DNA of 64,000 bases from an uncultured Lachnoclostridium sp. (GCA_944381625.1 CALWLW010000007.1:1-64000), one strand, 5' to 3'. Shown: positions 17,137-32,180, counted from the first letter of the stretch. Program-made: numbers and translations. The notes: generated by a model not told the origin, from the letters alone.

Positions 17137-18047
17137 TGGAAAAGAACTTTAAATTCGGAGTATTTCAGAATGACAAAAACATCGACCTGACCATCTTCCA
17201 GTACGGCTGGGAAAAATGCGTGCCTCTGCATTCATACGGCCCGGCCCGGAGAAACCACTACCTGTTCCACTTTATCTTCTCAGGAAAGGGCTATTTAAGC
17301 TCCAATGATTCCTCCGGCAATACACATCTGCACCGCCTGGAAGCCTGTCAGGGTTTCCTGATCTGTCCCAATCAGGTGAATACCTATTATGCAGACGAGA
17401 ATCTGCCATGGGAATACGCCTGGGTGGAGTTTGACGGAGTAAAAGCAATGGAATTCATGGAAATGGCGGGACTGGATTACGACAATCCTGTATACCGGAC
17501 GAAAAAGCGGGAGTTCGCGTCCCTGATCCGGGATGAACTGATGTATATTGTGGATAATCCGGGGCAGTCCCCCATCTATCAGATCGGCCATCTGTACCTG
17601 CTGTTTGACCGTCTGATCCAGTGTTCTTCTTCCGCCAAGGTAAATCCTGCCGGCAAGATGAAAGATTTCTATGTGAAAGAAGCCATCTCTTTTGTGGAAC
17701 AGAACTACAGCCGCTCCATCACCGTGGAGGATATCGCCGCTTTCTGCAATTTAAACCGCAATTATCTGGGCAAACTGTTCCGGGAGGGCACCAACCAGAC
17801 ACTGCAGCATTTTCTGATGCACTACCGAATGAACCGGGCCGCCGAACTTTTAAAGTTCTCAGACATGAGCGTAAACGAAGTGGGAAAGATGTGCGGGTAT
17901 CCCAATCAGCTGCATTTTTCCAGGGCCTTCAAAACAATCTACGGCATCTCTCCCAATCACTGGAGAGAGGAAAACGGAACCCTGCCCAAATCCGGCAGAC
18001 GCAGCAAAAAAAGTTTTTCGCAGGATGGTCATGAGGGTACACCCTGA
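17137..18047 (+). CDS. AraC family transcriptional regulator (cupin sensor plus AraC HTH; MsmR-like) divergent from the msm/aga operon
   Basis: The start was set to ATG MEKNFKF with an AGGAGG RBS. The C-terminus has the AraC HTH (NLNRNYLGKLFRE...HFSRAFK). Confidence 0.8.
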
Positions 18048-18068
18048 CCGATGCAGAAAGGAGTTTTC

Positions 18069-19991
18069 ATGGTCCCAGAATATTCTCAGGCTCGAAAACT
18101 GGCGCAGAAAGCATACCGCCAGGATATGTACGCCAAACGCAACCCATACCTTCAGGTTCTGGATGAACTCCTCCCCCTGGTCAGGACTGCCGGGGAGATG
18201 GATCTGGGACTGGTGGAAATCCCCCTGTCACGCATCGCGGGCACAAAGACTTCCGGCCGCACCCGGGCTTTTGCCGGCAATTTCATGCCTCTGCTTCCGG
18301 AGGAATCTGAGTTCGCCGACAAATGGTGTTCTCTCTATCTGTCCCACCTGGAAGAAGGCATCCGGGAACCGGTCATCGCCTGCGAATTTATGAATTATTA
18401 TTACATTATAGAAGGAAATAAGAGGGTCAGCGTGTTAAAGTTTGCTGGCGCAGTCAGTGTGCCTGCTTACGTGACGCGCATCATACCCGCGCCGGGCGAC
18501 ACGCCGGAGCTTAAGATCTATTATGAATATATGGATTTTTACCGGGCGTCCGGCGTCAATACCATATATTTTACCAGAGAGGGGAGTTTTTCCCGGCTTT
18601 GCGGGTTTATGGGCAAAGATATCCACACCCCCTGGACCCGGGACGACCGGATGCTCTTTACTTCTGCCTTTTTTCGTTTCTCCCAAATCTACAGAGAAAA
18701 AGGCGGCGAAAAGCTGGCCCTCCAGCCGGGGGACGGATTCCTTCTGTACCTGAGCGTCTACGGGTGGGAAGGAATGCTGGATAAATCCATGGATCAGCTC
18801 CGCCGGGAGATCGTCCTGCTGTGGCCGGACCTGGAATCCATGGCGTCAGGAGGAGCCGTGCGCCTGATCACACAGCCGGCAAAGCCAAAGGAAAAATCCT
18901 TCATTAAAAAACTGATCCCCGCGTCCCGGCCCCGGCTGACCGTCGGCTTCATCCATTACGGCACAATCCATACCTCCGGCTGGACCTATGCCCACGACCT
19001 GGGCCGGCTCTATCTGGAGGATGTGATGGGAGACCAGATCACCACCCGCGTGTACGACGATATACAGGGAGATAAGGACGGGGGAGCCGCCATCGAGCAG
19101 GCCGTCGCAGACGGCTGTCAGGTGGTATTTACCACATCGGTGCGTTTTCTGGACGCCAGTATCCGCGCTTCCATCCGGCACCCGGAAATCCGGATCCTGA
19201 ATTGTTCCCTGAATACCTACACCGGGCATCTGCGCACTTATTACGGGCGGCTCTACGAAGCCAAGTTCCTGGTGGGCATGCTGGCGGGCATCCTCTCGGA
19301 CTGCGGAAGGATCGGCTACATCGCGGAGACGCCTCTGGGAGGGACAGCCGCCGCCGTCAACGCTTTTGCCCTGGGCGTGCAGACCGTATTCCCCGGGGCA
19401 AAAGTGGTGCTGGAGTGGTCTTCCGCGAGAGACGGGGATGCGGAGCAAAAACTGAAGGACGCGGGCGTCGGCCTGATCTCCGGTCCGGAGATGCTGGCTC
19501 CGTCCCATTCCCCCCGCCCTTACGGACTGTACCGTCCTGAGGGCAGCGGAGGCGTCAGTCTGGCCTCGTCCATATGGCACTGGGGAAAATTTTATCACCA
19601 GATCATGCAGACAATCCTCAACGGCAACTGGGGACGGGACGGACAGGGGATGGACGGGGATTCCATCAACTACTGGTGGGGAATCTCTTCCGGCATTATC
19701 GACGTGATTTTTTCCAAAAATGTCCCCCGCCGCTCCATACAGTTGGTGGAGCTGATGAAGCGGCAGATTGTCAACGGAAATTTCCAGATTTTCTCCGGCG
19801 GCGTCCGCAGCCAGGACGGAACGCTGCAGGTTCCCGACGGGACGCCCCTTACGCCGCCTCAGATCGTCCGCATGGACTGGCTGGCGGAGAATGTGGAGGG
19901 CAGGATTCCCTCCCCGGACGAGCTGAACGAGGAGGCCTCGCGCATGATGAAAAACCAGGGAATCTTCCCGGGAAAGGACGGAATTTTATGA
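18069..19991 (+). CDS. Hypothetical protein with an N-terminal ParB/Srx-like fold region and a C-terminal BMP-family (PnrA-like) binding domain, with no signal peptide
   Basis: The C-terminal 330 aa resemble BMP-family lipoprotein binding domains (TVGFIHYGTIHTSGWTYAHDLG...GYIAETPLGGTAAAVNAFALG). The N-terminal region has a VEIPLSRIAGT motif. The start was chosen at ATG 18069 with an AAAGGAG RBS. Confidence 0.5.
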   Translation: MVPEYSQARKLAQKAYRQDMYAKRNPYLQVLDELLPLVRTAGEMDLGLVEIPLSRIAGTKTSGRTRAFAGNFMPLLPEESEFADKWCSLYLSHLEEGIREPVIACEFMNYYYIIEGNKRVSVLKFAGAVSVPAYVTRIIPAPGDTPELKIYYEYMDFYRASGVNTIYFTREGSFSRLCGFMGKDIHTPWTRDDRMLFTSAFFRFSQIYREKGGEKLALQPGDGFLLYLSVYGWEGMLDKSMDQLRREIVLLWPDLESMASGGAVRLITQPAKPKEKSFIKKLIPASRPRLTVGFIHYGTIHTSGWTYAHDLGRLYLEDVMGDQITTRVYDDIQGDKDGGAAIEQAVADGCQVVFTTSVRFLDASIRASIRHPEIRILNCSLNTYTGHLRTYYGRLYEAKFLVGMLAGILSDCGRIGYIAETPLGGTAAAVNAFALGVQTVFPGAKVVLEWSSARDGDAEQKLKDAGVGLISGPEMLAPSHSPRPYGLYRPEGSGGVSLASSIWHWGKFYHQIMQTILNGNWGRDGQGMDGDSINYWWGISSGIIDVIFSKNVPRRSIQLVELMKRQIVNGNFQIFSGGVRSQDGTLQVPDGTPLTPPQIVRMDWLAENVEGRIPSPDELNEEASRMMKNQGIFPGKDGIL

Positions 19992-20578
19992 AGATCATGG
20001 CAATCTCGGATGTGGAATCGCCCGCGCTGTGGGATTATTTCCAGCCGGAACGGCTGAAGGATATTGATGTGATTCTCTCCTGCGGGGATCTGGATCCACG
20101 GTACCTGTCATTTCTGGCCACCTTCTTCTCCGGTCCGGTTCTTTATGTCCACGGCAATCACGACAGCTGCTACGGAACCACGCCGCCGGAGGGCTGTATC
20201 TCCATTGAAGACCGGATCTACGAATACAAAGGCGTGCGGTTCCTGGGGCTGGGCGGTTCCATGCGCTACAAACCCGGCCCTTTCCAGTACACCCAGTTCG
20301 AGATGAACCTTCGAGTCTTAAAACTCTGGTTCCAGCTGAAGCGCCGGAAGGGCTTCGACGTACTGGTTACACATGCCCCGGCCTACGGGCTGGGAGACGG
20401 CAAAAACCTCACCCACACAGGGTTTAAGGCGTTCCTGACGCTGATGGAACGATATCATCCGCCGTTCTTCATCCATGGCCATATTCACCTGTCTTACAAC
20501 CCCACGGCCAGGAGAATGAACCAGTACGAACACACAACCGTGATCAACGCATATGAAAAATACGTCTTTGAGATCTGA
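19988..20578 (+). CDS. Metallophosphoesterase (calcineurin-like phosphoesterase)
   Basis: MKIMAISDVESP...ILSCGDLD...GNHD...HGHIH motif series. Its ATG overlaps the upstream stop by 4 bp, which suggests translational coupling. Confidence 0.7.
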   Translation: MKIMAISDVESPALWDYFQPERLKDIDVILSCGDLDPRYLSFLATFFSGPVLYVHGNHDSCYGTTPPEGCISIEDRIYEYKGVRFLGLGGSMRYKPGPFQYTQFEMNLRVLKLWFQLKRRKGFDVLVTHAPAYGLGDGKNLTHTGFKAFLTLMERYHPPFFIHGHIHLSYNPTARRMNQYEHTTVINAYEKYVFEI

Positions 20579-20591
20579 ACAGACGCAAAAA

Positions 20592-20628
20592 CGGGCCCGC
20601 TGACGCGGACCCGCATATTTTTTTATAA
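20592..20628. terminator. Bidirectional intrinsic terminator (serves metallophosphoesterase on + and SRP RNA on -)
   Basis: gggcccgc tgac gcggaccc hairpin followed by T7 on the plus strand and by TTTTTG on the minus strand. Confidence 0.55.
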
Positions 20629-20896
20629 TTCCGTGCATCCTGCTTTGAACAGCCGGCGCGGAACGTTACCTGCGCAGCCAGCTCAGCCCAGGCGCCCTCA
20701 CGGCACACAGGAGCTCCCGCTTAGTGCTGCTTTGTTCCCAACCTGACACGGTTCACAGGTTCCTGTTGCGTAAGACCCGGACATCGGCGCCGCTTACACA
20801 GGGCAGCTTCCGACCGGACAGCCCGAGGCAGGATATCACCCCTACTATGGCGGATTGTAGGTACAGGGCTCCGCCGCTTCCCCGGCTGCACGGAAA
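20629..20896 (-). ncRNA. ffs: Signal recognition particle RNA, large Bacillus/Clostridium type with Alu domain (scRNA/ffs)
   Basis: The minus strand reads GCCCUGUACCUACAAUCCGCC...GUGUCAGGUUGGGAACAAAGCAGCACUAAGCGGGAGCUCCUGUGUGCCGUGAGGGCGCCUGGGCUGAGCUGGCUGCGCAGGUAACG. This closely matches domain IV (GUCAGGUCCGGAAGGAAGCAGC) and the Alu region of B. subtilis scRNA. The 5' and 3' ends pair (CCGUGCAGCCGGGG with CCGGCUG...GCACGG). Confidence 0.8.
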
Positions 20897-20920
20897 TCTT
20901 ATGACAATATAAAAATAAAT

Positions 20921-20949
20921 GCCTGTACAGTATAGCCTCTTTTCACGGA
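20921..20949 (-). promoter_or_regulatory. Consensus sigma-A promoter for the SRP RNA (-35 TTGACA, 17-nt spacer, -10 TATACT)
   Basis: The minus strand reads TTGACAaatccgtgaaaagaggcTATACT, about 25-30 nt upstream of the mature SRP RNA 5' end. Confidence 0.6.
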
Positions 20950-21003
20950 TTTGTCAAATTATAAGTTTGGCGCGCCGCCGGCAGTCCTTTCGGGAGCCGC
21001 GGT

Positions 21004-24000
21004 TTACCATTTCAGCGACTTGATCCAGAAATCCAGCACCCCCAGGGGACTTTTGGGATTCAGGTAGGTCAGACCGGCAAAGGTGTATCCTGCCGTCTCC
21101 ACTTTTCCGTCGTCCCGGAGGCCGAAGGAAGCCAGCTCGCCGGCCAGGACGGAGGTCACATGGCTCCAGTCCCCGGTTTCCAGCTCTTTTACACTATTCG
21201 CGCCCGCGGCCACTACGGTTCCGTCGCTCTTCAGGCCCAGCACGTGTCCGTTGGACACGGACACATCCACGATATCCGTCCAGGCGCTCACGCTGCCACT
21301 TACGCCAGGATTATTGCCGGCGCAGGCCACCGTACCGTCTGTACGGATCCCCAGTGTCACCAGATTATAAGCAGTATCCACCTTGACGATCTGGCTCCAG
21401 TCCCAGTCCTCCGTCTGGGTGACCTGACCCATGGTGTTGGCTCCCATGACCAGAAACGTGCCGTCTTTTAACTTTACCGCATAGGTGCCGGAACGCCCCG
21501 TCACGCTTTCGGCCTGGTATTTGCCCTCAGGGCCGAACTGTTCCTCCAGCGCGTCGCTGATGGCTTTCCAGTTCCACACGTCTCCGCTGCCGGCCAGGCA
21601 GGCCCTGCCGTCGGCGCAGACGCCGTACACCAGTTCCGAGTCCTCGCTGCCGTCGGGGTGACTGGTAGCCAGGATCTGCACCACGTCCGTCCAGCCGTCC
21701 ACGCCGTAGCCTTCGTCCATGGGCGTGCCTGCCGCCGCCACCGTGCCGTCTTCTCTCAGTCCTACGATCCGGTGAGCCGATACGCTGATGGCTTTTATAC
21801 CGGTCCACTCCGCCGCTTCCTGCACGGCCGCATCCTCTTTCGCGGCCACCAGGACCCTGCCGTCGGCGGTAAGGCCCGCGCTGAACTCCATGCCTGTGCC
21901 CACATCGATCACGTTTTCCCAATCCGATACGTTGCACTGGCCGCCCTGGTTCCTGCCGTTGGCTTTCACGGTCCCATCCTCACGAAGTCCCAGCACATGA
22001 TAATAGCTGTTGGCCACTTTTGTGATATGGTTCCATCCAGAGGCGTAGAGCATATTGTTCAGGCAGGTGACCGCCACTGTCATCACGGCCAGGAACCCCA
22101 CGGCCTGAAGAAAGTAGGTCAGCGGGGGAATCAGCCGCTTTTCCGCCTGGATCCCTTTGTAATGGGCGGAATGGCTGACCTGATAAGACGGGATCTCCGG
22201 CCTGGGAAGTTTATATTTTCCGCAGACGGCGTCCATGGCCTTCCGGTAGGCGTCTCCCAGCCTTATTTCCATATTTATGACGGCGTCCGCCGCCTCCCGT
22301 TTGTGCCTGATGGCCTCGGCAGCATTCCTGGCCCGCACCATCATCATGGCCCGGTCCACGAAGAGCAGCGCCGCAGGAAGCAGAAGCAGCACCAGCTGGG
22401 AACTGCGGATCTGAATCCTGGTAATTTTATAGAGTACCACCGCGCCGATCAGGCCCCCAATCAGCACATAGCTGTTGGGAACCAGGCAATACACCCAGAG
22501 TACAATCAGAGCCAGCGATACTCCGAAGAAGATTCGGGAAATATTATAGTAGCCGCTGGTGTAATTCGTGCTGTACGCAATGTTGGTCAGCAGGAACTGA
22601 AAGGACAGCAGCATGGCCGTCAAGGACAGCCCCAGCAGAATCGCCCGCAGGCGGGAACCGCCCCGGTCCACCGGCTGGGCCAGCTCCGTGTGCTCGTAGG
22701 CATACTCCAGTTTTTCCTGCTCCGCAAACAGCGGCTCCGCCGCCGTATCCCGCCGCTCATAGGCCGCGCGCACCGCGTCCAGCTCCTGCTGGCGGCGGAT
22801 GCCCGTATGCCAGTCGTCCAGTTTCTGGAAACGGTCGTCAAAAGCGGGCAGATAGAGTTTCACCCGCTCCTCGGCCTGCTCCACGTCCGCGTTCTCCCCG
22901 ACATGATAATCTGTGAGATTTTTCGTGGCGCGCAAAAGAGCGTCCCATGCCGCGTCCCCGCAGAGCGCCGTCATGGTCCGGGTGTACGCCTCCGCCTGGC
23001 CTTTATCCGCGTGCTGGAGGGCCTGACGGTAGTGGTGGTCGACCTCCTCTGAAAGCGCCGGTTTTTTCAGGTTCTCCGTCATGGCGCATACCATACCCCA
23101 GTGGGCCCGGTATTCCTGACCGTCGCTTAGGACGGCTTTTTCGAACATCTTTTTCGCCTTGTTCCAGTCTCCCTTTTCCAGCGCCTCAGAGCCCTGGCGC
23201 AGAAGCTCCAGATTCTTTTTCACCAGCGCCGCCGAGCGGTTCTGCCGACCGAACATCCGGTTGATCTCTTCGGTCACCCGGTTCTGGAAATCGCTGCCCT
23301 CGCAGGGAATGGACTGGAGCGTCTGCAGCTCCAGCGGCAGATCCTCCGGCCGTATGCCCCGGAACACGGACAGCATCTTACGGCCCGCGTCCTGTCTGCG
23401 GTAGGCCAGGAATCGCCGCCAGACCGCCTGGAACCGGGCGTCCTCCCATCTGGTGCCGGGAGCCGCCGTCACGATCATGGCCTCGGCCTTCTCCGCCGCC
23501 GCCATCTCATAGAGGTTCAGATCCTGGCGGGGAACGCCGGAGAGCATGCCCGGATGGAAGATCCGGTAACCCATGTCCTCCAGGGCTTTGCCCACCTGCA
23601 CGGACAGCAGGAAATCCTCCGTCCCCTGAGACGCGGTGCAGTCGATATAAATATCCGGGGCCGTGAGAGTCCTGGAGATGGCCATGAGCTTCTGATGCTG
23701 GGCGTCGATCCTCCGGGCCATCCCTTCATAATAGCAGCGGGACGCCTGGGGCACATAGGACATCATCTTTTCATAGGCCGGGTCCTTCACAAAGGAGCCG
23801 TGCTCCACCCGGTGGAAGATCACGCCGCCGTAATCCAGGGCGTTCTCGGACAGTTCCACGCCATATTTGCTCAAAAGATAGCCCCAGTTGGCCTCCGGCT
23901 CCGCGCCGTCCACCTTCAGGATCCGACTGTAGTAATTCAGCGCCACGTCGTAGTTTCCCGCGTGCCTTGCGTCGGAAGCCAGCAGATAGAGGTTTTCCTT

Positions 24001-24117
24001 CTGGGCAAACTGATTGGGCAGCACGAACAGGGCCTGGCAGGCGGGGCAGGTGCTCACCTTCACTCCCTCCGCCGCCTCGATCCGCGCTCCGCACTGGGTG
24101 CATCTGTATATGCTCAT
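21004..24117 (-). CDS. Large membrane protein: N-terminal CxxC...CxxC zinc ribbon, divergent TIR-like domain, TPR-like helical repeats, about 5 TM helices, and C-terminal RCC1-like repeats (paralog 3 of 3)
   Basis: 1037 aa. Zinc ribbon CTQCG...CPAC. TIR-like block DIYIDCTASQGTEDF...GYRIF...AEAMIVTAAPGTRWEDARF. Five hydrophobic helices at about aa 480-700. The C-terminus has about 6 repeats of the RCC1 pattern (HVLGLREDGTV.A.G.N..GQ). Confidence 0.7.
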   Translation of the reverse strand: MSIYRCTQCGARIEAAEGVKVSTCPACQALFVLPNQFAQKENLYLLASDARHAGNYDVALNYYSRILKVDGAEPEANWGYLLSKYGVELSENALDYGGVIFHRVEHGSFVKDPAYEKMMSYVPQASRCYYEGMARRIDAQHQKLMAISRTLTAPDIYIDCTASQGTEDFLLSVQVGKALEDMGYRIFHPGMLSGVPRQDLNLYEMAAAEKAEAMIVTAAPGTRWEDARFQAVWRRFLAYRRQDAGRKMLSVFRGIRPEDLPLELQTLQSIPCEGSDFQNRVTEEINRMFGRQNRSAALVKKNLELLRQGSEALEKGDWNKAKKMFEKAVLSDGQEYRAHWGMVCAMTENLKKPALSEEVDHHYRQALQHADKGQAEAYTRTMTALCGDAAWDALLRATKNLTDYHVGENADVEQAEERVKLYLPAFDDRFQKLDDWHTGIRRQQELDAVRAAYERRDTAAEPLFAEQEKLEYAYEHTELAQPVDRGGSRLRAILLGLSLTAMLLSFQFLLTNIAYSTNYTSGYYNISRIFFGVSLALIVLWVYCLVPNSYVLIGGLIGAVVLYKITRIQIRSSQLVLLLLPAALLFVDRAMMMVRARNAAEAIRHKREAADAVINMEIRLGDAYRKAMDAVCGKYKLPRPEIPSYQVSHSAHYKGIQAEKRLIPPLTYFLQAVGFLAVMTVAVTCLNNMLYASGWNHITKVANSYYHVLGLREDGTVKANGRNQGGQCNVSDWENVIDVGTGMEFSAGLTADGRVLVAAKEDAAVQEAAEWTGIKAISVSAHRIVGLREDGTVAAAGTPMDEGYGVDGWTDVVQILATSHPDGSEDSELVYGVCADGRACLAGSGDVWNWKAISDALEEQFGPEGKYQAESVTGRSGTYAVKLKDGTFLVMGANTMGQVTQTEDWDWSQIVKVDTAYNLVTLGIRTDGTVACAGNNPGVSGSVSAWTDIVDVSVSNGHVLGLKSDGTVVAAGANSVKELETGDWSHVTSVLAGELASFGLRDDGKVETAGYTFAGLTYLNPKSPLGVLDFWIKSLKW

Positions 24118-24173
24118 GGTTTATTCCTCCTCCGTCTCATAGGGATAGGGCATGCCCACATCTTCCATATCTT

Positions 24174-26825
24174 TCATGGCGTTGCGCATACCAATGTCCG
24201 AATCGGTGGTTCCATAGTCTCCCCGGTCAGATGGGCCCCTCTCTCACTTTTAACATAGACCGTTTCCTCATCCGTAGCGGCTATGGCCGCAAAGTAGAAA
24301 TAGTCGGCGTCGATGCTCACCGTGGCTATCTTTCCGCACCCCCGGTAAACGGCCAGCACACCAGTGTCTCCAAGTCCTGACTCCACGCCGCTTTCCAGAA
24401 GCCGCCCATCCGAGGTCACGGCCAGCACGCCGTTGCCAGTCTCTCCCCTGCGCCATTTCGCGGCCAGGATCTTCTCCTCGTCCGTCCACATCAGCTCCGG
24501 CAGCTTCGACAGTTCCTCCCTGCTTTTGGCCGGCGGCACCAGAATCGCGTAGGCAATGTCGCTCCAGTCTCCGGGAATCTCCACCGAAGCGTCCGTGCAA
24601 TAAATACTGCCGTCGCTTCGCACGGCAATCACATCGCCGCCGCACACATCGAACACGGACACGTCGGAAGCCACCTGGCCCCGGCCCGTCACATACAGGC
24701 CGCCGTCCGCCGTAAGTCCCGCCGCGATCTGGTCGCTCACATGGATAGACACCAGGTTGCTCCATCCATCCACGCCGCCGAAGTCTCTGGCTCTGCCCAG
24801 CAGATAGGCCGTCCCGTCCCGGCGCACCACGCCTCCGGAGGCGCCGCTGTCAGACAGGGACACGGAAAGTACCTTGCCCTCTTCCAGCCCGAAGCTCTCG
24901 TCCATGCCGTAGCTGAGCAGATCGCCGTCCTCATTAACTGCAAGGAGTTTATTGGGCGCGCCGCAGAGGTAGCCCCGGTTAAAGGCCTGCCTCCACGCCT
25001 TCAAAAACGCCTCTTTATCGCCGCGTTCGTCGCTGCTGTACATGTTCCTCAGAGTCTCCCAGGCTTCATAGAGCCTGCCTTCCTCCAGGTACTGCACGCC
25101 TTCCTCTTCCAGATCCTCCAGCTTGCCCTGGGCCTCCGCCACATAGGCGGTCGTTCCCCGGATATCGGACACCGCATCCGCCCGCAGCCTCATATCGTCC
25201 AAAGCTGCCACCGCATTGCTGTAAGTAATCTGCTTCATAATCGCCTTACACTGTTCCGCCATCTGGGCGCTGTCCTTGTAGTCCTCCAGATCCCTGTACA
25301 GATCGTAAGCCTCCTGCCATTGGCTGTGGTTGAAGGCCGTGGTGGCTTCCTTGTACTGCTTCGCCGCCACGCCCGCCGGAGATTTGGTATAAGAAATATA
25401 GGCGATCAGCCCGGCCACGGCGATCACCGGAACGGCGATGAGAAAAGCCCGGATACGCATGGCCCGCTTTCTTTTTCTCCACTCCTCCATCTGCCGCTTC
25501 TGCTCCTCGGCCTTCAGAACCTCCTCTTCTTTCCGCCTCCGCTCTTCTTCCTGCTCGGCCTCCAGACGCTGACGCTCCTTTTCCTGCTCGGCATAGACGG
25601 ACGCCATCTCCCGCACCCGCTCCGCCACGTCCCGGTAGGTCTGCTGCTCCCGCTCGCTGGCGAAGGCCAGGGCGCTGCGGTAATTCCCTTCTTCCGTGAT
25701 CTCCCGGCCGCTTTCGATCAGCGCCTCCTCCGAAGGGCACTCCCGTTCACAGAGCAGGAGTCCCCAGTAGGCCTGGCTCTCGGTGGGGTTCTTCAGCAGA
25801 ATCTCCTCGTATTCCCCGGCCGCCGCCTTAAAGTCCCTTTTCTCCAGAGTCTGTCTGGCTTTCAGGAGCAGGTTGGCATAGGTGAAGCTGCCGTGGGTCC
25901 CCGCCTGCTCCTTCAGCGCGCCCCGGTAGTCGGCCAGGGCGTCCTCCACTGCCGTGCGCAGATCCGCTGCAAAGGAGGGCAGAGCCATATTCAGCCTCCG
26001 GTCGATACCGTCGAAATAGCTGTCGGGAATATCCTCGTATTCATCCAGGTTTTCAAAGGCAGTCACCAGAGACGGGATCTGTCCCTTCGCCGCCCGGACG
26101 GCTTTCTCCTTCCGGTACAGGAAACGCTCCGCGTTAAAATTCACCTCGTCCGTAAACGCCGAAGGCTCCGACGCCGCCAGCACCATCAGCTTCGCCGTGG
26201 AATACGCCCGGTAAAGAGCGATCTCCTGGGCTTCCCCTTGCGGCAGTTCCGGCTCCAGCGCCTGGCAGAACACCGACAGGTTCATGGATTCCAGGAGCTG
26301 ACGGATCTGGACGGCGCGGTTCAGGGAGACCAGGCTGTCCCCGGACACCTCCAGCCATACATCCACAGGGGGATGGGATTTAGCGTAGGCAATGACCTGC
26401 TCCTGGAGCCGGTGGATCCGCTGCGCCTCCGCCTGGTATTTCTCTTTCTGGGGGTCCTCCGCCAGAGACAACGCCTTCTTCACATCCGCATACTGCAGGA
26501 AATCTCCCTTCTCCGCCTGGTGGCAGATCAGGCGGTAGGTACCGTCCTCCAGCTTTTCATATTCCACTTCATAGACCGCCATGGCGCGCCGGAACCAGGC
26601 GTCCGCGCGGTCCGGGTGCGCCTTGACAATGTCTCCGTAGGCCTGGGCCGCGCCGGCGAAATCCCGCCTCTGCACCGCCTCCGCCGCAAAAAGATAACCA
26701 CTTTCCAGCTCTGTATAGCCCTGGGGCACCGTCACCACCTTTCCGCAGTTTTTACAGACGGCTTCCCGCTGGCCGTCCCCCAGCTCCAAAAGTCCGTTGC
26801 AGACCGGACAATCAATACGCAGCAT
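24174..26825 (-). CDS. Large membrane protein: N-terminal zinc ribbon, divergent TIR-like domain, TPR-like repeats, charged coiled coil, single TM helix, C-terminal RCC1-like repeats (paralog 2 of 3)
   Basis: 883 aa. Zinc ribbon CPVCNG...CKNCG. TIR-like block VDVWLEVSGDS...NLSVF...AKLMVLAAS...NFNAERF. E/R/K-rich coiled coil (EQEKERQRLEAEQEEERRRKEEEV). TM helix AFLIAVPVIAVAGLIAYI. RCC1-like repeats at the C-terminus. Confidence 0.7.
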   Translation of the reverse strand: MLRIDCPVCNGLLELGDGQREAVCKNCGKVVTVPQGYTELESGYLFAAEAVQRRDFAGAAQAYGDIVKAHPDRADAWFRRAMAVYEVEYEKLEDGTYRLICHQAEKGDFLQYADVKKALSLAEDPQKEKYQAEAQRIHRLQEQVIAYAKSHPPVDVWLEVSGDSLVSLNRAVQIRQLLESMNLSVFCQALEPELPQGEAQEIALYRAYSTAKLMVLAASEPSAFTDEVNFNAERFLYRKEKAVRAAKGQIPSLVTAFENLDEYEDIPDSYFDGIDRRLNMALPSFAADLRTAVEDALADYRGALKEQAGTHGSFTYANLLLKARQTLEKRDFKAAAGEYEEILLKNPTESQAYWGLLLCERECPSEEALIESGREITEEGNYRSALAFASEREQQTYRDVAERVREMASVYAEQEKERQRLEAEQEEERRRKEEEVLKAEEQKRQMEEWRKRKRAMRIRAFLIAVPVIAVAGLIAYISYTKSPAGVAAKQYKEATTAFNHSQWQEAYDLYRDLEDYKDSAQMAEQCKAIMKQITYSNAVAALDDMRLRADAVSDIRGTTAYVAEAQGKLEDLEEEGVQYLEEGRLYEAWETLRNMYSSDERGDKEAFLKAWRQAFNRGYLCGAPNKLLAVNEDGDLLSYGMDESFGLEEGKVLSVSLSDSGASGGVVRRDGTAYLLGRARDFGGVDGWSNLVSIHVSDQIAAGLTADGGLYVTGRGQVASDVSVFDVCGGDVIAVRSDGSIYCTDASVEIPGDWSDIAYAILVPPAKSREELSKLPELMWTDEEKILAAKWRRGETGNGVLAVTSDGRLLESGVESGLGDTGVLAVYRGCGKIATVSIDADYFYFAAIAATDEETVYVKSERGAHLTGETMEPPIRTLVCATP

Positions 26826-28850
26826 TTATATCCTCCCCCTCTCGCACGCTTCCAGCTCTGCCTCCAGCTCGTTTATGGCTCCCGCCACCTTTTCTTCCGC
26901 GGCCTTGTACCATACTTCCTGCTGTTTTCCAAAATCCGGGTAATACCGTCTGTACGGCTCCGCCGCCTGGTCAATGCCTGTTTTCAGCCCGGCCAGCAGG
27001 TCTTCTGACAGGGCGGGAAGGCTTCTTCTCTGGGCAGCCGCCCAGCCCCTGGTCCCGGAGAGCTTTTTCATCGCTCCGCCTTCCTTCGCGAAGCTGACTG
27101 CCCAGAAGACAACCGTCACAATCAGCGCCACAATCCCCGCAAGCTTCGCGTCCCCGCTCTCCAGGACGGTGATCAGCAGGGAATACCCCAGCATCATGAG
27201 GAACAGACGGATACCGTAGGTGACGCAGCCGGTATCCAGAATCATCAGATCATTCATGATCAGCCACAGAAGGACAAAGAATGCCAGTGTGGAAACCATA
27301 TTGACGATCCCCATCTCATACAGGAACCCTTCCACCAGAAGGGGAAGCGCCACGCCCAGGGTGAGGAAAAGCCCTATTTTCAGCAGAAGGTCTTTTCCCT
27401 GGGCTGATTCCCTGGTATCCATCCGGAGCACATTGTACTCCTGAGACTGCTTTAAGAGCTGCTGGTAATTTCCCGCCGCCGCCGAACTGCCCAGCGTTTT
27501 CAGGACGCCTTCCACCTTCCGGCCGCACTCGTCGCGCCTGGTCCTGCTTTCCGCCTCCCAGTCCTGATTCTCCCGGCAGGTTTTCGCGGTCTTATGTAAA
27601 TCTTTCTTTTGCTCCTCCGACGCGCAGGCCAGCGCTTTCTTAAAATTCTCATCCTCCTCGATGGGAGACGCATACCGGGCCAGCGCTTCTCTGCCGGGGA
27701 TTTCCCGCGCGCACATCAGAAGGCCCAGATAATTCTCCGGGTCGTTTTTACCTCCCGACTGGGTCAACGCCCGCCGGAACAGCTTCTCCGCTTCTTTGTA
27801 CTCCCCGTTTACCAGGCGCACCGTGGCCAGAATCCGCGTCTTCTCCGCGCTCTCCTTTAAATCTCCTTCCGAAGAGATCTCCCCGCGCGCCTGCCTTCCG
27901 CTCTCCCTCACCTGTCTGGTAATATGGGATACGTCTTCCGTCCCGCCGCTGGCAAAATGGCCGGCCACCAGATTTAAAAGCTCGCTCCTGGCGTTGGCGG
28001 AGGTATCCATCTCCACATACGCGTCCATCTGCCGCAGAGCCTCCGGCAGATCCTCATGCCCCATATGCTGGTACACCGGTATCAGGAGACGCTGTGTGCT
28101 TCCCTTTTCTTTCCTGTCCTGGGCGATCAGATCCGCGTAGCGGCTCCACTCGTTGCGCACCCAGACCGCGTCGTAATACTCTTTCCGGGAGGCGAAGGCC
28201 AGCATGACCCTGGCGCTCTGCAGCGCCGCGAAAATACGGGGCTCGTATTCTTCGCCCACTGTCAGGGATTCCTCCGCGAAGAACACCTGATAGCCCCGGC
28301 GGGTCAGCTCCCGGTAATAATCCGCCGCCATACGGCTGTCCGCCGTCCGCTTCTCTCCTTCCGCCGTCCGCTTGTAGCAGATGAACACATCCACCGGGAC
28401 CTCCTGCCCGGAGATGGACAGGCTCTTGGACTGGATATCGTCAATATATGAACTCTGTCTCAGATAGAACTCCCGGTCCAGGGAATTCCAGGCCAGATCA
28501 ATGGCTTTTTTCACGTACAGGTATTCGCTGAATTTCTGTGTGGACAGGCGGTGCAGAGTGGGAAGCAGGTCGGCCGTGGCCGGGTCTTCCACATATTCGA
28601 TGCCGTAAACGCTCAGCGCCATCCCCCAGCATACCGCCGCGTCCGACGGATTCTCGATCAGCAGTTCCTGGAATAATTCTATGGCCTCGTCAAACCGGCT
28701 CTCCCGCAGGAGCCCGGACGCTTTCTCATAAACGCCGCCCTGGACTTCCTCCCTGGGCATGGGGTTTTCCGCCATACAGCGGGTGCAGATCCCGATGCTT
28801 CCGCCCGGTTCCGCCAGTACCTCGCCTCCGCAGTGGATACATCTTACCAT
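26826..28850 (-). CDS. Membrane protein with N-terminal zinc ribbon, canonical TIR domain, TPR-like repeats and 4 C-terminal TM helices (paralog 1 of 3)
   Basis: 674 aa. Zinc ribbon CIHCGG...CTRC. The TIR block (aa ~152-290) is VDVFICYKRTAEGEKRTADSRMAADYYRELTRRGYQVFFAEESLTVGEEYEPRIFAALQSARVMLAFASRKEYYDAVWVRNEWSRY, with a conserved glutamate in the WxxxE position. Four hydrophobic helices near the C-terminus. Its stop abuts the paralog-2 start (26825/26826). Confidence 0.75.
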   Translation of the reverse strand: MVRCIHCGGEVLAEPGGSIGICTRCMAENPMPREEVQGGVYEKASGLLRESRFDEAIELFQELLIENPSDAAVCWGMALSVYGIEYVEDPATADLLPTLHRLSTQKFSEYLYVKKAIDLAWNSLDREFYLRQSSYIDDIQSKSLSISGQEVPVDVFICYKRTAEGEKRTADSRMAADYYRELTRRGYQVFFAEESLTVGEEYEPRIFAALQSARVMLAFASRKEYYDAVWVRNEWSRYADLIAQDRKEKGSTQRLLIPVYQHMGHEDLPEALRQMDAYVEMDTSANARSELLNLVAGHFASGGTEDVSHITRQVRESGRQARGEISSEGDLKESAEKTRILATVRLVNGEYKEAEKLFRRALTQSGGKNDPENYLGLLMCAREIPGREALARYASPIEEDENFKKALACASEEQKKDLHKTAKTCRENQDWEAESRTRRDECGRKVEGVLKTLGSSAAAGNYQQLLKQSQEYNVLRMDTRESAQGKDLLLKIGLFLTLGVALPLLVEGFLYEMGIVNMVSTLAFFVLLWLIMNDLMILDTGCVTYGIRLFLMMLGYSLLITVLESGDAKLAGIVALIVTVVFWAVSFAKEGGAMKKLSGTRGWAAAQRRSLPALSEDLLAGLKTGIDQAAEPYRRYYPDFGKQQEVWYKAAEEKVAGAINELEAELEACERGRI

Positions 28851-29305
28851 CTCTCTTCCCCCTCGCTCTCCCTGTTATTTTTCTGTCCGGCACGCCGCTT
28901 TCCTTCCCGATCCAGCTCCGTCATCCGAAGAGCCGCGGAGCCGGCGGCGATGGCGAAGACCGCGGCCAGCGCCAGAATCAGGATCTCCAGAAAGGCAACC
29001 ATCCTCCAGCTGCTCCCCGGCAGGAAGCTCCCGATGATCCCGACCCCGATGGTCAGCACCGGATAGAGCCACAGCGGATACATGGTATCCTCAAAATTGG
29101 CCGCTGTCTGGAGACTGTCCGCTCTGGCCACGCCGAACCAGAGCCCGCCTCCCGTAAGCACCAGGGACAGCACCGAAAATCCGAATCCAATCCAGGAACC
29201 GGCCTTTTCCATATCCACGAACAGGAAAAATGCCGCCAGATACACTGCCAGCAGGATTCCCGCAATCACCAGCACACGAATTCCATAAGAACTTTGCTTC
29301 TTCAT
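28844..29305 (-). CDS. Small integral membrane protein (4 TM helices) with charged C-terminal tail
   Basis: 153 aa. Hydrophobic segments VLVIAGILLAVYLAAFFLFV, IGFGFSVLSLVLTGGGLWFGV, LWLYPVLTIGVGIIGSFL, AFLEILILALAAVFAIAAG. It overlaps the TIR paralog-1 start by 7 bp and follows the SPFH gene by 3 bp. Confidence 0.6.
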   Translation of the reverse strand: MKKQSSYGIRVLVIAGILLAVYLAAFFLFVDMEKAGSWIGFGFSVLSLVLTGGGLWFGVARADSLQTAANFEDTMYPLWLYPVLTIGVGIIGSFLPGSSWRMVAFLEILILALAAVFAIAAGSAALRMTELDREGKRRAGQKNNRESEGEERW

Positions 29306-29308
29306 AAC

Positions 29309-30778
29309 CTATTCCTCCCCTCTCTTTTTGCCGCATCCGCCGCAGAACAGGGAATCCGCCGGATTCTCCCGTCCGCAGGCACAGGTCCAGGGGCCTTCCG
29401 GCTCCGGCCGTTTGCTGCCGCAGCCTCCGCAGAACCGCGCGTCTTCCGGGTTCACCCGCCCGCAGGCGCAGGTCCAGCCGGCCGGCGCGGCAGGCGCCTG
29501 CGGGGCTTCCTGGGCGGGCGCACCCTGGGACGAGGCCTGCGCGGACGCACCCTGGGGCGCCGCCCCGTAGGGATTGTTCATACCCGCGTAAGGATTCGGT
29601 ATCTCCCCTGATCCGGGCGGCACAACCGCTCCGCCGGGAGCCTGCGCTCCCATGTTCATGGCTCCTGCCATATTGGAGCCCGCCGCGCCCGCGCTGTTCA
29701 TGGTATCTTTCATGATACCGCCCATATTTTTCATCATTTCCAGGCCGATGCCCATCTTCATCACGTCGCCGAAAAAGCCTGTCATGTCTCCCATGCCGCC
29801 TCCCGCGCCGCCGGAACTGCCTTCTGCCTGGCCGCCTCCCAGCGCGCCGGCATCCACCATCCGATTCATGGTGTCGAACTGATGCTCCTGTACCGAGGTG
29901 ATGCCTTCCAGGGAACGTCTGACAGCCTCGCCCTGGGCGCCCATCACCGTCGTCCGGGCCGCCACATCGGCTTCCACCAGCTTCTTCTCCCCTTCCAGCC
30001 GGGCAAGCTGAGCCTCCTGCTCCGCCTGCTTCCTGCGCAGCTCGTACTCCAGATCCAGCTTACCGTGCTGGATATAACGGCCTTCAGCCAGAAGCCGCGC
30101 TTCCTGAAAGGCGTGGTTGTCTTCCGGCAGCGCGAACGCGTCCACGTAGAACTCCCGAAGCTGGATCCCGTACTGCAGGAACTCCGGCTTCAGCACCTCC
30201 AGCAGTCCCTGGCTGATATCGTTCAGGTGCTGATCCAGCGTAAACGCGTTCATGCTGCACTGCTGGATCACCCTTGCCAGATAGGTCTTGATCTTGGTAT
30301 TGAGCATGCTGTTAAACATATCCCGCATGCTCATGGCAGTCAGTTCCTGCCCTGTTCCCAGCAGCCAGCACAGCATCTCCTTCACCTGGTTCGGGTCAGG
30401 CTGTACGTTCATGGTGCCGCTGGCGCCCACGTTCAAGGGCATGGCTTTCCCCGGCTCCACCTCCAGCATCATGTTGACCCTCTCCCTGGTCCCCCAGGGA
30501 ATGGACATCTGTACGGCTAAATTTACAAAATAGACTTCACAGTGGAAATATCTCCCGAATCGGAGTTTTGTGAAAAATCGAAGAAAAGGGTAATTCCGGG
30601 TCTCCAGGACATGCATGCCCGGCCCCAGCACTTCCACGGCCTGCCCGTCACGGAAAAAGACCGCGGCCTGAGACTCATGCACCACAAGCCTCGCGCCGAA
30701 CTCAAAATCCTCTGTGGCGCACTTCCACGCCATCACATCAGTCCTTCCCTCATCTACCATCATGCTTCCTAACGCCAT
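29309..30778 (-). CDS. SPFH/band-7 domain protein with Gly/Met/Ala-rich low-complexity linker and two tandem C-terminal zinc ribbons (COG4260-like)
   Basis: 489 aa. The N-terminal 300 aa match SPFH-family proteins (ARLVVHESQAAVFFRDGQ...). A coiled-coil segment follows (KQAEQEAQLARLEGEKK). The C-terminus is WTCACGRVNPEDARFCGGCGSKR followed by WTCACGRENPADSLFCGGCGKKR. GGGGGA RBS before the ATG. Confidence 0.75.
   Translation of the reverse strand: MALGSMMVDEGRTDVMAWKCATEDFEFGARLVVHESQAAVFFRDGQAVEVLGPGMHVLETRNYPFLRFFTKLRFGRYFHCEVYFVNLAVQMSIPWGTRERVNMMLEVEPGKAMPLNVGASGTMNVQPDPNQVKEMLCWLLGTGQELTAMSMRDMFNSMLNTKIKTYLARVIQQCSMNAFTLDQHLNDISQGLLEVLKPEFLQYGIQLREFYVDAFALPEDNHAFQEARLLAEGRYIQHGKLDLEYELRRKQAEQEAQLARLEGEKKLVEADVAARTTVMGAQGEAVRRSLEGITSVQEHQFDTMNRMVDAGALGGGQAEGSSGGAGGGMGDMTGFFGDVMKMGIGLEMMKNMGGIMKDTMNSAGAAGSNMAGAMNMGAQAPGGAVVPPGSGEIPNPYAGMNNPYGAAPQGASAQASSQGAPAQEAPQAPAAPAGWTCACGRVNPEDARFCGGCGSKRPEPEGPWTCACGRENPADSLFCGGCGKKRGEE
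29330..29485. repeat. Tandem direct repeat (period about 78 bp, 2 copies) encoding the duplicated zinc ribbon at the 3' end of the SPFH gene
   Basis: Two adjacent near-identical segments are visible in the nucleotide sequence (ccgcagaac...ccgcaggc[a/g]caggtccag...). They are mirrored in the protein as two WTCACGR..P.D..FCGGCG.KR units. Confidence 0.6.
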
Positions 30779-30854
30779 AGCTTTTATCCCCCTGCGTTTA
30801 AATATTAAGAATCATGATGCCCCTTTTATTCATATTTTGTCAATGATGTGAACT

Positions 30855-32180
30855 TTAACATTTTCCAGAACTGTCCCGCTTCCGGCGTACCTGTCCCAAA
30901 AGAAACGGCGCCGCAAACAGCAGGGCTTTGCAGATATTATCCGCGATCATGCAGTACCACACGGCGCGCAGTCCCAGCCCCCAGACCCGCACGCAGAGGA
31001 ACGTGGACAGGATGCGCACGCCCCACATCCCCGCCGTCTCCACGCCGAACGCATAGCGTGTCCGCCCCAGGCCGTAGAAAACGCCTTCCAGCACGATCAT
31101 CAGGCCAAAAAACGGCTCGGACAGAGCCACGATGCGGAGCATCTCCCCGCCCAGCCGCACCACCTCCCCGCTGGTGGTAAACAGTCTCATAAGCGGGTAT
31201 GCCCCCGCGTACAGGACCGCGCCGCTGGCAAACATGACGGCCAGGGTCAGAAAGACGCTCAGCTTCCCCACTGCCCGGATCTTTTCTCCGTCCTGTTCTC
31301 CCCTGGCCGTCCCAATCAGAGCCGAGGTTGCCGTCCGCAGGCCGTAGCCCGGCACATAGAAAATGGTCTCTGCCGTCACCGCGATAGAATGAGCCGCGAA
31401 TACCGTCGTGCCCATGCCGGAGACCAGGCTGGCAAACACCACGTATCCCAGGCAGGAGACCACGCTGGTGCCCAGCACCGGGAGCCCGGCGTCCGCGCAT
31501 TCCTCCAGCAGTCCCCGGTCTGCGGAGAAATCCTTCCATTCCCAGGCAAGCTCCCGTTTCCGCCGGTACGCGGCGTACATGAGGATTCCCGAAAGGGCAT
31601 AAGATACGGCGGACGCCGCTGCCGCCCCGCTGACCCCCATCCCCAGGGCATAGATCAGAACATAGTTGAGCACAATATTCAGCACGTTGGCCGCCACGCT
31701 GATCAGCATGGGCGTCTTCGTATCCTGCACTGCCCGCAGGGCGTCGCCCAGCACGGAGCCGGCCGTGCGGAACACCATGGGCAGACTGACGATCAGGAAA
31801 TACCGGGACGCTTCGGCACGGATGCCGGGATCTGCGCCCATCCATCCGGGAATGTACGGGCTCAGCACGACTGAAAAGCCGCCCAGCGCCAGGCCGGACA
31901 GCACAGACAGCAGCAGAGCCTGCTGCGACAGCTTTTTCACTTGTTTCTGGTCGCCTGCTCCGGCGGCTCTTGAGATCAAAATCAGCATGGCGGTGCCGAT
32001 GGCCCCCGGAACGCTGTTGACCAGCCAGGTCACGGTGGTGGTCGTACTCACCGCCGCCGTGGCCTCCTCGCCCAGCCGCCCCACCATGGCCGTATCCACA
32101 TACTGGAGCAGTGTGGCCAGGATCTCCTCTATGACCGTCGGAAGCGACAGCATCAGAAGCCTGGCCGCGTATTTTCTCAT
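30855..32180 (-). CDS. MATE family efflux transporter
   Basis: 441 aa, 12 predicted TM helices, MATE-like N-terminus (LPTVIEEILATLLQYVDTAMVGRLGEEATAAV). Confidence 0.85.
   Translation of the reverse strand: MRKYAARLLMLSLPTVIEEILATLLQYVDTAMVGRLGEEATAAVSTTTTVTWLVNSVPGAIGTAMLILISRAAGAGDQKQVKKLSQQALLLSVLSGLALGGFSVVLSPYIPGWMGADPGIRAEASRYFLIVSLPMVFRTAGSVLGDALRAVQDTKTPMLISVAANVLNIVLNYVLIYALGMGVSGAAAASAVSYALSGILMYAAYRRKRELAWEWKDFSADRGLLEECADAGLPVLGTSVVSCLGYVVFASLVSGMGTTVFAAHSIAVTAETIFYVPGYGLRTATSALIGTARGEQDGEKIRAVGKLSVFLTLAVMFASGAVLYAGAYPLMRLFTTSGEVVRLGGEMLRIVALSEPFFGLMIVLEGVFYGLGRTRYAFGVETAGMWGVRILSTFLCVRVWGLGLRAVWYCMIADNICKALLFAAPFLLGQVRRKRDSSGKC

Follow-up and report, generated by a model that had tools for sequence, protein, structure and literature searches.

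Can a bacterial TIR protein carry a sensor-like domain on the outer side of the membrane? The question was raised by a preliminary description of a stretch of DNA of 64,000 nt from an uncultured Lachnoclostridium sp. (GCA_944381625.1, CALWLW010000007.1:1-64000), the whole of which is called the window below. Three paralogous genes lie head to tail on its minus strand, i.e. p1 (26826-28850, 674 amino acids (aa)), p2 (24174-26825, 883 aa), and p3 (21004-24117, 1037 aa), and it had been proposed that p3 and p2 join a TIR module inside the cell to repeats of the RCC1 type outside. The three proteins are similar over about their first 400-470 aa (22-25% identity, BLASTP E values of 3e-16 to 1e-22). 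The comparison of orthologue alignments with hhalign gave even clearer matches (99.9% and E 5e-35 for p3 versus p1, 99.9% and E 6e-34 for p2 versus p1).

The C-terminal part of p3 (aa 692-1037, minus strand 21007-22044) matches the Pfam family RCC1_2 (PF13540) with 58.3 bits, compared with a cut-off of 22 (E 5e-16), and WD40_RLD is matched as well. The presence of RCC1-type repeats far beyond chance is thereby confirmed. The repeats are ~38-49 aa long and are centred on DG[TRK] motifs at residues 714, 752, 790, 836, 885, 927, 965, and 1003. The AlphaFold2 (AF2) model of p3, which was built on 24 orthologues and has a mean predicted local distance difference test (pLDDT) value of 84, shows its strands in eight groups of three, which lie within residues 698-1009, and ends with a helix (1024-1036). 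Motifs and strand groups thus both give eight repeats within ~346 aa, instead of the six repeats within ~370 aa that had been described before. Foldseek found BLIP-II as the best match to the model (E 2e-12, TM-score 0.60-0.65), followed by UVR8, the RLDs of HERC2, and RCC1 (E 1e-9 to 1e-7). BLIP-II was also the best match in the PDB for a profile of the orthologues (E 2e-9). The domain is therefore best described in terms of its model, i.e. as beta-rich with BLIP-II/RCC1-type propellers as the closest folds, and the model agrees with the expectation that the repeats form a beta-propeller.

Full-length orthologues of p3 form 24 clusters with identities of 36-97%. The genomes with names belong to Lachnoclostridium sp. 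An138 and An131 and, among metagenome-assembled genomes, to Merdimonas, Acetatifactor, and Oscillospiraceae. The short amphipathic helix GVLDFWIKSLKW that follows the propeller (aa 1024-1036, window positions 21007-21045) contains a nearly invariant tryptophan, W1031. This helix may serve to close off the propeller or may rest on the surface of the membrane.

The C-terminal region of p2 is less regular. A single transmembrane (TM) helix (aa 458-481 in the AF2 model, 25383-25454; hydropathy 2.42 at 460-478) is followed by a helical, TPR/Sel1-like region of ~135 aa (aa 482-616, 24978-25382; AF2 helices at 483-616 with a pLDDT of ~90) and then by divergent, propeller-like beta repeats (aa 617-883, 24177-24977), both of which are predicted to be extracytoplasmic. 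The strands of the model (pLDDT 81.7) extend from residue 620 to 868, i.e. over ~250 aa. Accordingly, the single TM helix described for p2 stands, but the ~400 aa of similar repeats have to be replaced by ~135 aa of helices and ~250 aa of divergent beta repeats. The match to RCC1_2 is below the threshold (17.6 bits versus 22), five DG repeats are found, and the region is similar to the repeats of p3 with a BLASTP E value of 6e-7. The best fold match of the p2 model, RLD2 of HERC2 (E 1.4e-4, TM-score 0.37), is weaker than the matches of p3. Judged from the model, the p2 ectodomain is a more divergent propeller of the general kind found in p3.

In front of the membrane region, p3 has a zinc ribbon (CxxC...CxxC, aa 1-32) and a helical region (aa 38-150; together 23668-24117), for which Pfam gives weak zinc-ribbon and TPR matches. 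The four cysteines C6, C9, C24, and C27 are nearly invariant in the orthologue alignment. A degenerate TIR-like domain (aa 151-295, 23233-23667; see below) and a TPR-like helical region follow (aa 296-480, 22678-23232), the latter predicted to be cytoplasmic and indicated by weak Pfam TPR matches, AF2 helices, and the hhalign alignment to p1. The cytoplasmic module of p2 (25455-26825) has, according to its hhalign alignment to p1, the same order of zinc ribbon, helical region, degenerate TIR-like domain, and TPR, and ends with a charged coiled coil. In p1, a zinc ribbon, TPR, TIR_2, and again TPR precede four TM helices, which were found by hydropathy (aa 488-588, 27087-27389). p1 lacks an ectodomain. 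It had been described as a protein without repeats that ends after its fourth helix; the absence of repeats and the four helices were confirmed, but TM4 is followed by a Lys/Arg-rich tail of 85 aa that is predicted to be cytoplasmic.

After the zinc ribbon, TIR, and TPR portion of p3, five helices emerge from both hydropathy and the AF2 model, as had been noted before. They comprise residues 485-515, 522-545, 549-568, 570-594, and 665-691, and the fourth helix continues in the cytoplasm to residue 634. The first four helices form a bundle (TM1-TM4, aa 485-594, 22336-22665), which hydropathy, AF2, and charge all indicate. A Lys/Arg-rich cytoplasmic helix and linker (aa 595-664, 22126-22335) lead to TM5 (aa 665-691, 22045-22125; hydropathy 1.95), which is predicted to cross the membrane from the inside to the outside. 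For an arrangement with the N-terminus inside, five spans, and the C-terminus outside, the mean number of Lys and Arg residues in the 24 orthologues is 8.8 inside compared with 2.8 outside. The orientation of TM5 can be read independently of the number of helices upstream, because its own flanks differ (2.8 Lys+Arg on the N-terminal and 0.8 on the C-terminal side) and the loop of 71 aa in front of it contains on average 12.2 Lys+Arg in the same orthologues.

The two paralogues and the more distant relatives can be compared in the same way. For p2, the flanks of the single TM helix have 6.2 Lys+Arg on the N-terminal and 2.4 on the C-terminal side (18 orthologues). For p1, the values in 20 orthologues are 2.6 in the N-terminal flank, 0.1, 1.4, and 0.7 in loops 1, 2, and 3, respectively, and 5.6 in the C-terminal flank. 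The four-helix bundle of p1 reads as in-to-in and matches TM1-TM4 of p3, which lie at the same relative position. A database search with p1 retrieved at least 3,787 proteins that share the zinc-ribbon/TPR/TIR module, and those with organism names all come from Clostridia. Exactly one TM helix after the TIR domain is present in 80 of the 103 members sampled, and the first TM helix after TIR is flanked by 6.2 Lys+Arg on the N-terminal and 1.8 on the C-terminal side in the 90 members scored. In 12 relatives, RCC1_2 repeats and one TM helix occur together with a canonical TIR domain. Taken together, it is highly probable that the propellers of p3 and p2 lie outside the membrane and their N-terminal halves in the cytoplasm, and the extracytoplasmic location of the repeats proposed earlier is thus upheld as a prediction by the charges of p3 and p2 as well as by the single-TM relatives.

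A protein of 1409 aa encoded on contig L011 (8627-12856) consists of a zinc ribbon, TIR_2, TPR, a TM helix (743-761), RCC1_2 repeats (821-1082), and three FMN_bind domains that follow the repeats. FMN_bind is characteristic of extracytosolic flavinylated proteins (PMC8238504), so that the position of these domains supports the outer side of the membrane for the RCC1_2 repeats.

An exhaustive HMMER search with the p3 propeller yielded 15,613 cluster representatives at E <= 1e-3, and the best 148 of them were classified. A signal-peptide-like hydrophobic segment is found at the start of 67 of these; 23 match the Ser/Thr-kinase-like N-terminus of one relative, P0050 (E <= 1e-3), and 15 carry the zinc-ribbon/TIR N-terminal module. 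All five kinase-like relatives of the P0050 type that were spot-checked have a TM helix before the repeats. The signal-peptide-like starts and the kinase-like TM proteins suggest that the propeller often serves outside the membrane as a sensor. The kinase-like proteins (P0050, P0071, P0075, P0092, P0103, and others) have the order Ser/Thr-kinase-like N-terminus, in some cases after a zinc ribbon, TM helix, and RCC1_2 repeats, and seem to represent a large class of receptor kinases that has apparently not been characterised.

The cytoplasmic side of the three proteins raises the question of which of them could be an enzyme. Residues 153-295 of p1 (27966-28394) match TIR_2 (PF13676) with 46.5 bits, compared with a cut-off of 28 (E 6e-12). 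The weak TIR-like matches in NCBIfam (ThcB4 and FxsC) also concern p1, and none were found for the other proteins of the operon. The motifs DVFICYK and AVWVRNEW are conserved in all p1 orthologues, and the ~40 relatives from the wider family that were aligned all keep the signature, including the Glu at the catalytic position, almost unchanged (DVFICYK and AVWV[KR]NEWSRY). A phmmer search of the p1 TIR domain against PDB sequences gave marginal matches to plant TIRs only (E 0.2-0.3), which were used just to locate this residue. The Glu of AVWVRNEW, residue 234 of p1, aligns with the Glu of the WCLxEL motif in the plant TIRs L6 and AtTIR, which is the catalytic residue of TIR NADases.

For p2 and p3, the Pfam TIR families (PF13676 and PF01582) have no match even at E 0.1; among the p3 orthologues, a precomputed match to PF13676 is recorded for one, P0007. 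The catalytic-Glu motif is present in none of the 24 p3 orthologues, DVFICYK is likewise absent, and the hhalign alignment to p1 deletes the WVKNE segment. In p2 the signature motifs are replaced: no Trp is left, and at the position of the Glu there is Asp in the consensus and Asn in the protein of the window. At the level of the fold the relationship is retained: the 99.9% hhalign matches of p2 and p3 to the p1 family span the TIR region, and Foldseek matches the p3 region with TIR-APAZ (8i87_G, E 0.011, probability 1.0) and the p2 region with TIR-STING (9lmq_B, E 0.015, probability 1.0). p2 and p3, which had been introduced as TIR proteins, are thus not canonical ones.

The TIR-like domain is nevertheless the best conserved part of p3, with a mean pairwise identity of 62% compared with 44% for the propeller. 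This conservation, the highest in the protein, suggests that the p3 pseudo-TIR has been retained for a conserved non-catalytic or non-canonical role. It has invariant residues of its own, e.g. N201, E204, E209, and MFGR at 288-291. From the aligned sequences, p2 and p3 are likely to be pseudo-TIR proteins under strong constraint and p1 a probable enzyme. As the catalytic motif is absent from p2 and p3, p1 is the only one of the three that could supply a TIR enzyme activity.

The three genes do not stand alone. Gene calling places a gene for an SPFH protein (29309-30778, 489 aa) and a gene for a small protein with four hydrophobic segments (28844-29305, 153 aa; here called the 4-TM protein), a conserved partner gene, upstream of p1, so that five genes follow each other head to tail on the minus strand from 30778 to 21004 in the order SPFH, 4-TM, p1, p2, and p3. 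They are separated by one overlap of 7 nt and gaps of 0, 3, and 56 nt. A promoter-like site lies 5' of the SPFH gene (minus strand 30814-30843, TTGACA-18-CATCAT, 10 of 12 matches) and a terminator-like hairpin 3' of p3 (minus strand 20591-20614, a stem of 10 bp, 8 of them GC, with a run of T behind it), both of which are consensus matches only. The order of the five genes is identical in Lachnoclostridium (L001), Acetatifactor (L005), and Oscillospiraceae (L006). Because of the tight packing, the flanking promoter- and terminator-like sites, and the conserved order, the five genes are predicted to be a single operon. Open reading frames on the opposite strand (e.g. 21658-23052 and 24741-27008, plus strand) were discarded as mirror-frame artefacts of the high-GC coding strand.

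The SPFH protein matches Band_7_1 with 98.3 bits and DZR with 28.1 bits. It is predicted to be soluble, since hydropathy reveals no TM segment, and consists of the Band_7_1 domain, a low-complexity linker rich in Gly, Ala, and Met, and a C-terminal double zinc ribbon. A Band_7_1 SPFH gene adjoins a TIR-module gene in seven of nine unrelated contigs (L008, L010, L011, L012, L013, L015, and L016) and is missing next to it in the other two (L007 and L014). At six of these seven loci, a protein of 213-233 aa without Pfam match is encoded directly after the SPFH gene, while in L012 both the Band_7_1 call and the gene calls in between are fragmented. The small proteins next to SPFH are homologous to the 4-TM protein of the window (L001, L005, L006, L008, L010, and L011). 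The pairs of SPFH and 4-TM genes are located at 28844-30778 in the window and at 6040-7964 in L008, 3515-5979 in L010, 2075-4566 in L011, 3520-5979 in L013, 4121-5965 in L015, and 9025-10864 in L016. The adjacency in seven of nine contigs and the homology among the small 4-TM proteins indicate that SPFH, 4-TM, and one or more TIR-module proteins are, as far as gene order and similarity tell, a conserved three-component cassette, which is listed by no catalogue that we searched.

The TIR-module genes that adjoin the SPFH and 4-TM pair carry differing ectodomains. Among the C-terminal domains listed for the family are DUF6273, RCC1_2, leucine-rich repeats (LRR), FGE-sulfatase, and Sel1. The commonest of these in the wider family (proteins P0225-P0316) is DUF6273, whose fold resembles that of C-type lectins and which, in the receptor-binding proteins of phages, is known to be targeted by diversity-generating retroelements (PMC10743442). 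One protein, P0048 (L008, 8001-10775), consists of a canonical TIR domain, one TM helix, and a C-terminal LRR domain, i.e. it has the content of a Toll-like receptor in inverted order; its gene adjoins SPFH, 4-TM, and MatE genes.

On this basis we tentatively propose that the outward propellers of p2 and p3 and the TIR domain of p1 belong to a membrane-embedded, heteromeric, receptor-like complex in which the propellers signal to p1; topology and signalling taken jointly, we regard this as quite possible, though short of probable. The propellers of p2 and p3 would bind a partner outside the membrane, for example part of the cell wall or a surface protein of foreign origin. Once such a partner is bound or the envelope is disturbed, the TIR and TPR modules that p1, p2, and p3 have in the cytoplasm would pack differently on a scaffold below the membrane, which would be formed by the SPFH protein, a protein of the YdjI type, and held at the membrane through the 4-TM protein and zinc-ribbon contacts. 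The changed assembly would switch on the TIR domain of p1. Its most probable output would be the cleavage of NAD+, which would lead to NAD+ depletion or to a nucleotide signal. p2 and p3 would thus be sensor subunits with pseudo-TIR adaptors and p1 the catalytic subunit. Outside-in signalling through a TIR assembly is plausible, but our confidence in the complete signalling scheme is much lower than that in the topology.

Several observations are in favour of a role in conflict or sensing. Binding-type ectodomains vary within the family, TIR-module paralogues occur in tandem in the window, in L011, and in L016, and mobile-element genes are occasional neighbours (L010, L012, L014, and L015). 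A wider generalisation would be that gut Clostridia possess a large, so far unstudied family of transmembrane TIR receptors with swapping ectodomains, in which surface events are passed to an SPFH-restrained TIR NADase, with p2 and p3 as sensors and p1 as catalytic subunit. As a whole, this generalisation is speculative and rather unlikely to hold. If it were true, RCC1, LRR, and DUF6273 domains would detect, e.g., phage adsorption or cell-wall damage, and the family would be a bacterial counterpart of the logic of Toll-like receptors.

A number of results weigh against the proposal of a receptor-like complex. The genes that flank the operon encode an AraC regulator, a Bmp-domain protein, a metallophosphoesterase (Metallophos), a MatE transporter, and a DUF3737 protein, i.e. 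the neighbours have housekeeping or transport functions and do not form a defence island. PADLOC has no match for three of the five operon proteins (p3, 4-TM, and SPFH) and marginal ones for p1 and p2 (E 5e-4 to 9e-3). A tblastn search with the N-terminal module of p1 against 50,697 phage records found no match, and a scan of IMG/VR with p1-specific patterns, which have a limited reach, gave no confirmed relative. The neighbours, the PADLOC outcome, and the two phage searches also speak against a defence role of the classical kind. Concerning the topology, the helix parity depends on TM3 and TM4 of p3, the hydrophobic cores of which are short; the loop that joins them, KITRIQIRSSQ, is mildly basic and has 1.2 Lys+Arg on the side predicted to be outside. 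A TM segment is lacking in nine TIR-RCC1_2 relatives (maximal hydropathy over 19 residues <= 1.43), which suggests that the propeller is used in the cytoplasm as well. Finally, Pfam finds no PspA or TPM domain among the operon proteins and their neighbours, so that the parallel to YdjGHI, on which the SPFH part of the proposal draws, is partial.

Two candidate arguments were discarded in this context. An origin of the cassette from a prophage or phage is not supported by the searches of phage records and IMG/VR, and RCC1 repeats were rejected as a marker of an outside location because of the TIR-RCC1_2 proteins without TM helix. One of the latter is P0235 (L016, 6001-8520); the same cluster in L016 also contains a separate zinc-ribbon/RCC1_2 protein of 543 aa without TIR domain.

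The alternative that survives best is a module of the YdjGHI/SamGHI type that deals with envelope stress or organises the membrane. p1, p2, p3, and the 4-TM protein would recruit the SPFH protein, the TIR domains would be mere scaffolds without NAD+ chemistry, and the propellers would tether the complex to the cell wall or monitor the wall. The SPFH protein indeed has the architecture of YdjI and, like it, no TM helix (PMC8581546, PMC11237479), and YdjG is likewise a membrane protein that begins with zinc ribbons (PMC11237479). YdjG and YdjH recruit YdjI, which is itself soluble, to the membrane, and the module ties PspA and envelope-stress signalling to the membrane (PMC8581546, PMC11237479, bioRxiv 10.64898/2026.02.06.704340). 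The loss of the TIR catalytic motif in two of the three paralogues would also fit, as would the neighbourhood without relation to defence and the outcome with PADLOC. In contrast, the conservation of the Glu at the catalytic position in the p1 orthologues and in all of the ~40 aligned relatives argues for retained enzymology, and the operon has neither a pspA gene nor an equivalent of the TPM-domain protein YdjH. We consider this alternative possible, but on balance unlikely.

Less can be said for a surface binder without signalling function, i.e. for propellers that capture glycans or proteins of the host, the diet, or neighbouring cells for adhesion or nutrition while the cytoplasmic part anchors or assembles the proteins. 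The ectodomains found in the family are of kinds that typically serve for binding (RCC1 propeller, LRR, and DUF6273; PMC10743442), the source organisms are gut Clostridia, and ABC transporters for sugars or peptides are found near several loci; yet these transporter neighbours vary among the loci, and versions without TM helix exist. Moreover, a conserved cytoplasmic module of ~450-690 aa with a highly conserved TIR domain is hard to reconcile with an anchor, and the strict linkage to SPFH and 4-TM suggests a regulated intracellular function. This makes a mere surface binder quite improbable. The weakest alternative, which we regard as very improbable, is a misread topology in which TM2 and TM3 or TM3 and TM4 of p3 are one span or a re-entrant hairpin and the RCC1 repeats are cytoplasmic: the short cores of TM3 and TM4, the basic loop between them, and the nine TM-less fusions would agree with it, but TM5 is oriented from inside to outside by its flanks and the Lys/Arg-rich loop, the equivalent bundle of p1 reads in-to-in, p2 and 12 relatives reach the domain via one clear TM helix after a poly-Lys/Arg stretch, and one relative has FMN_bind domains on the side of the repeats.

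The surroundings of the operon have some additional features. The GC fraction is 0.57-0.62 at 18001-32000, i.e. in the cassette and its immediate neighbours, compared with 0.45-0.56 over most of the region from 32 to 64 kb. The difference could reflect horizontal acquisition or merely the composition of the proteins. No tRNA genes were found in the window. In the protein of 646 aa encoded at 18051-19991, only residues 297-458 match the Bmp/PnrA family of substrate-binding proteins, and Pfam gives no match at E <= 1e-4 for the first ~290 residues.

How new is the arrangement? The statement that it had not been described turned out to be half right. Its content is common in databases: at least 3,787 proteins share the module, 80 of the 103 sampled have one TM helix, and the annotation of single proteins already contains TIR together with RCC1_2, while the proteins are named merely "TIR domain-containing protein" or "tetratricopeptide repeat protein". 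Searches for the combination of TIR and RCC1, extracellular TM-TIR proteins, SPFH with TIR, and surveys of TIR architectures found no description in the searchable literature, outside of which many subscription papers lie. The parts, i.e. TIR, the RCC1/BLIP-II propeller, and SPFH, are already known. What appears not to have been described is the outward-facing, membrane-spanning layout, the presence of pseudo-TIR paralogues beside a catalytic one, and the constant partnership with SPFH and 4-TM.

To our knowledge, all characterised bacterial TIR systems sense their triggers inside the cell. If the proposed receptor-like complex exists, an outward binding domain wired to TIR would enable a response to surface events before or without invasion of the cytoplasm, and the parallel between bacterial and animal TIR proteins would extend from the domain to the layout of the receptor. 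The family is abundant in Clostridia of the human and animal gut and has a fixed pair of partners, which makes it a well-defined experimental target, and the set of one catalytic and two pseudo-TIR paralogues offers a directly testable model of heteromeric TIR signalling.

A comparison with known systems shows which parts are shared. BLIP-II, a secreted protein-binding propeller, is the closest solved relative of the p3 domain (Streptomyces; PDB 1jtd, 3qhy, and 3qi0), and both have RCC1-like repeats of ~40 aa with three strands. In contrast to p3, which has eight repeats and is tethered by TM5, BLIP-II is small and soluble, has seven blades, and lacks an anchor and a cytoplasmic module; the likeness does not imply that a beta-lactamase or a penicillin-binding protein is the target of p3. 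RCC1, the RLD of HERC2, and UVR8 belong to the same repeat superfamily as the p3 and p2 domains. Canonical RCC1 has seven blades of ~51-68 aa and is intracellular, e.g. as the exchange factor of Ran. The p3 domain departs from this pattern, as its eight repeats are shorter (~38-49 aa), bacterial, and predicted to be outside the membrane. The kinase-like RCC1_2 proteins of Firmicutes likewise have their RCC1_2 repeats after a single TM helix that follows a signalling domain in the cytoplasm, but this domain is a kinase instead of TIR. The characterised analogue of this layout is PknD of Mycobacterium, the propeller of which is of the NHL type.

The known bacterial TIR defence systems sense triggers in the cytoplasm and act with partners such as ThsA, Argonaute, and STING. 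p1 shares with Thoeris ThsB, TIR-APAZ/SPARTA, and TIR-STING the TIR domain with a Glu at the catalytic position, and the models of p3 and p2 match the folds of TIR-APAZ and TIR-STING, respectively. However, the operon encodes no ThsA, Argonaute, STING, or cyclase, and its TIR module is anchored in the membrane and equipped with an ectodomain. The likeness to YdjGHI/SamGHI of Bacillus subtilis, which was drawn by description, concerns the SPFH protein, which shares the architecture of YdjI/SamI, i.e. a soluble protein in which Band_7_1 is combined with a low-complexity stretch and, at the C-terminus, a zinc finger. The operon differs in gene order, in the absence of pspA and of the TPM-domain protein YdjH, and in its membrane partners, which carry TIR, TPR, and ectodomains. 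Among published combinations, the nearest is TirE of Dictyostelium, in which RCC1 repeats occur together with two diverged TIR domains that are missed by the Pfam models (PMC13142454); TirE is eukaryotic, and no membrane span between its TIR domains and RCC1 repeats has been reported.

The most far-reaching comparison is that with the Toll-like and interleukin-1 (IL-1) receptors of animals, which signal via heteromeric TIR-TIR assemblies, with some of the TIRs serving as adaptors that are not catalytic (PMC7075850). The order in p2 and p3 is inverted, with TIR at the N-terminus and the ectodomain at the C-terminus, the ectodomains and TM regions are not homologous, p3 has five spans, and the bacterial proteins add a zinc ribbon, TPR, and the linkage to SPFH. 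No sign of a common descent of the whole architecture is seen. What p2 and p3 are predicted to share with these receptors is the logic, i.e. an ectodomain made of repeats, a membrane span, and a cytoplasmic domain with a TIR fold in one chain.

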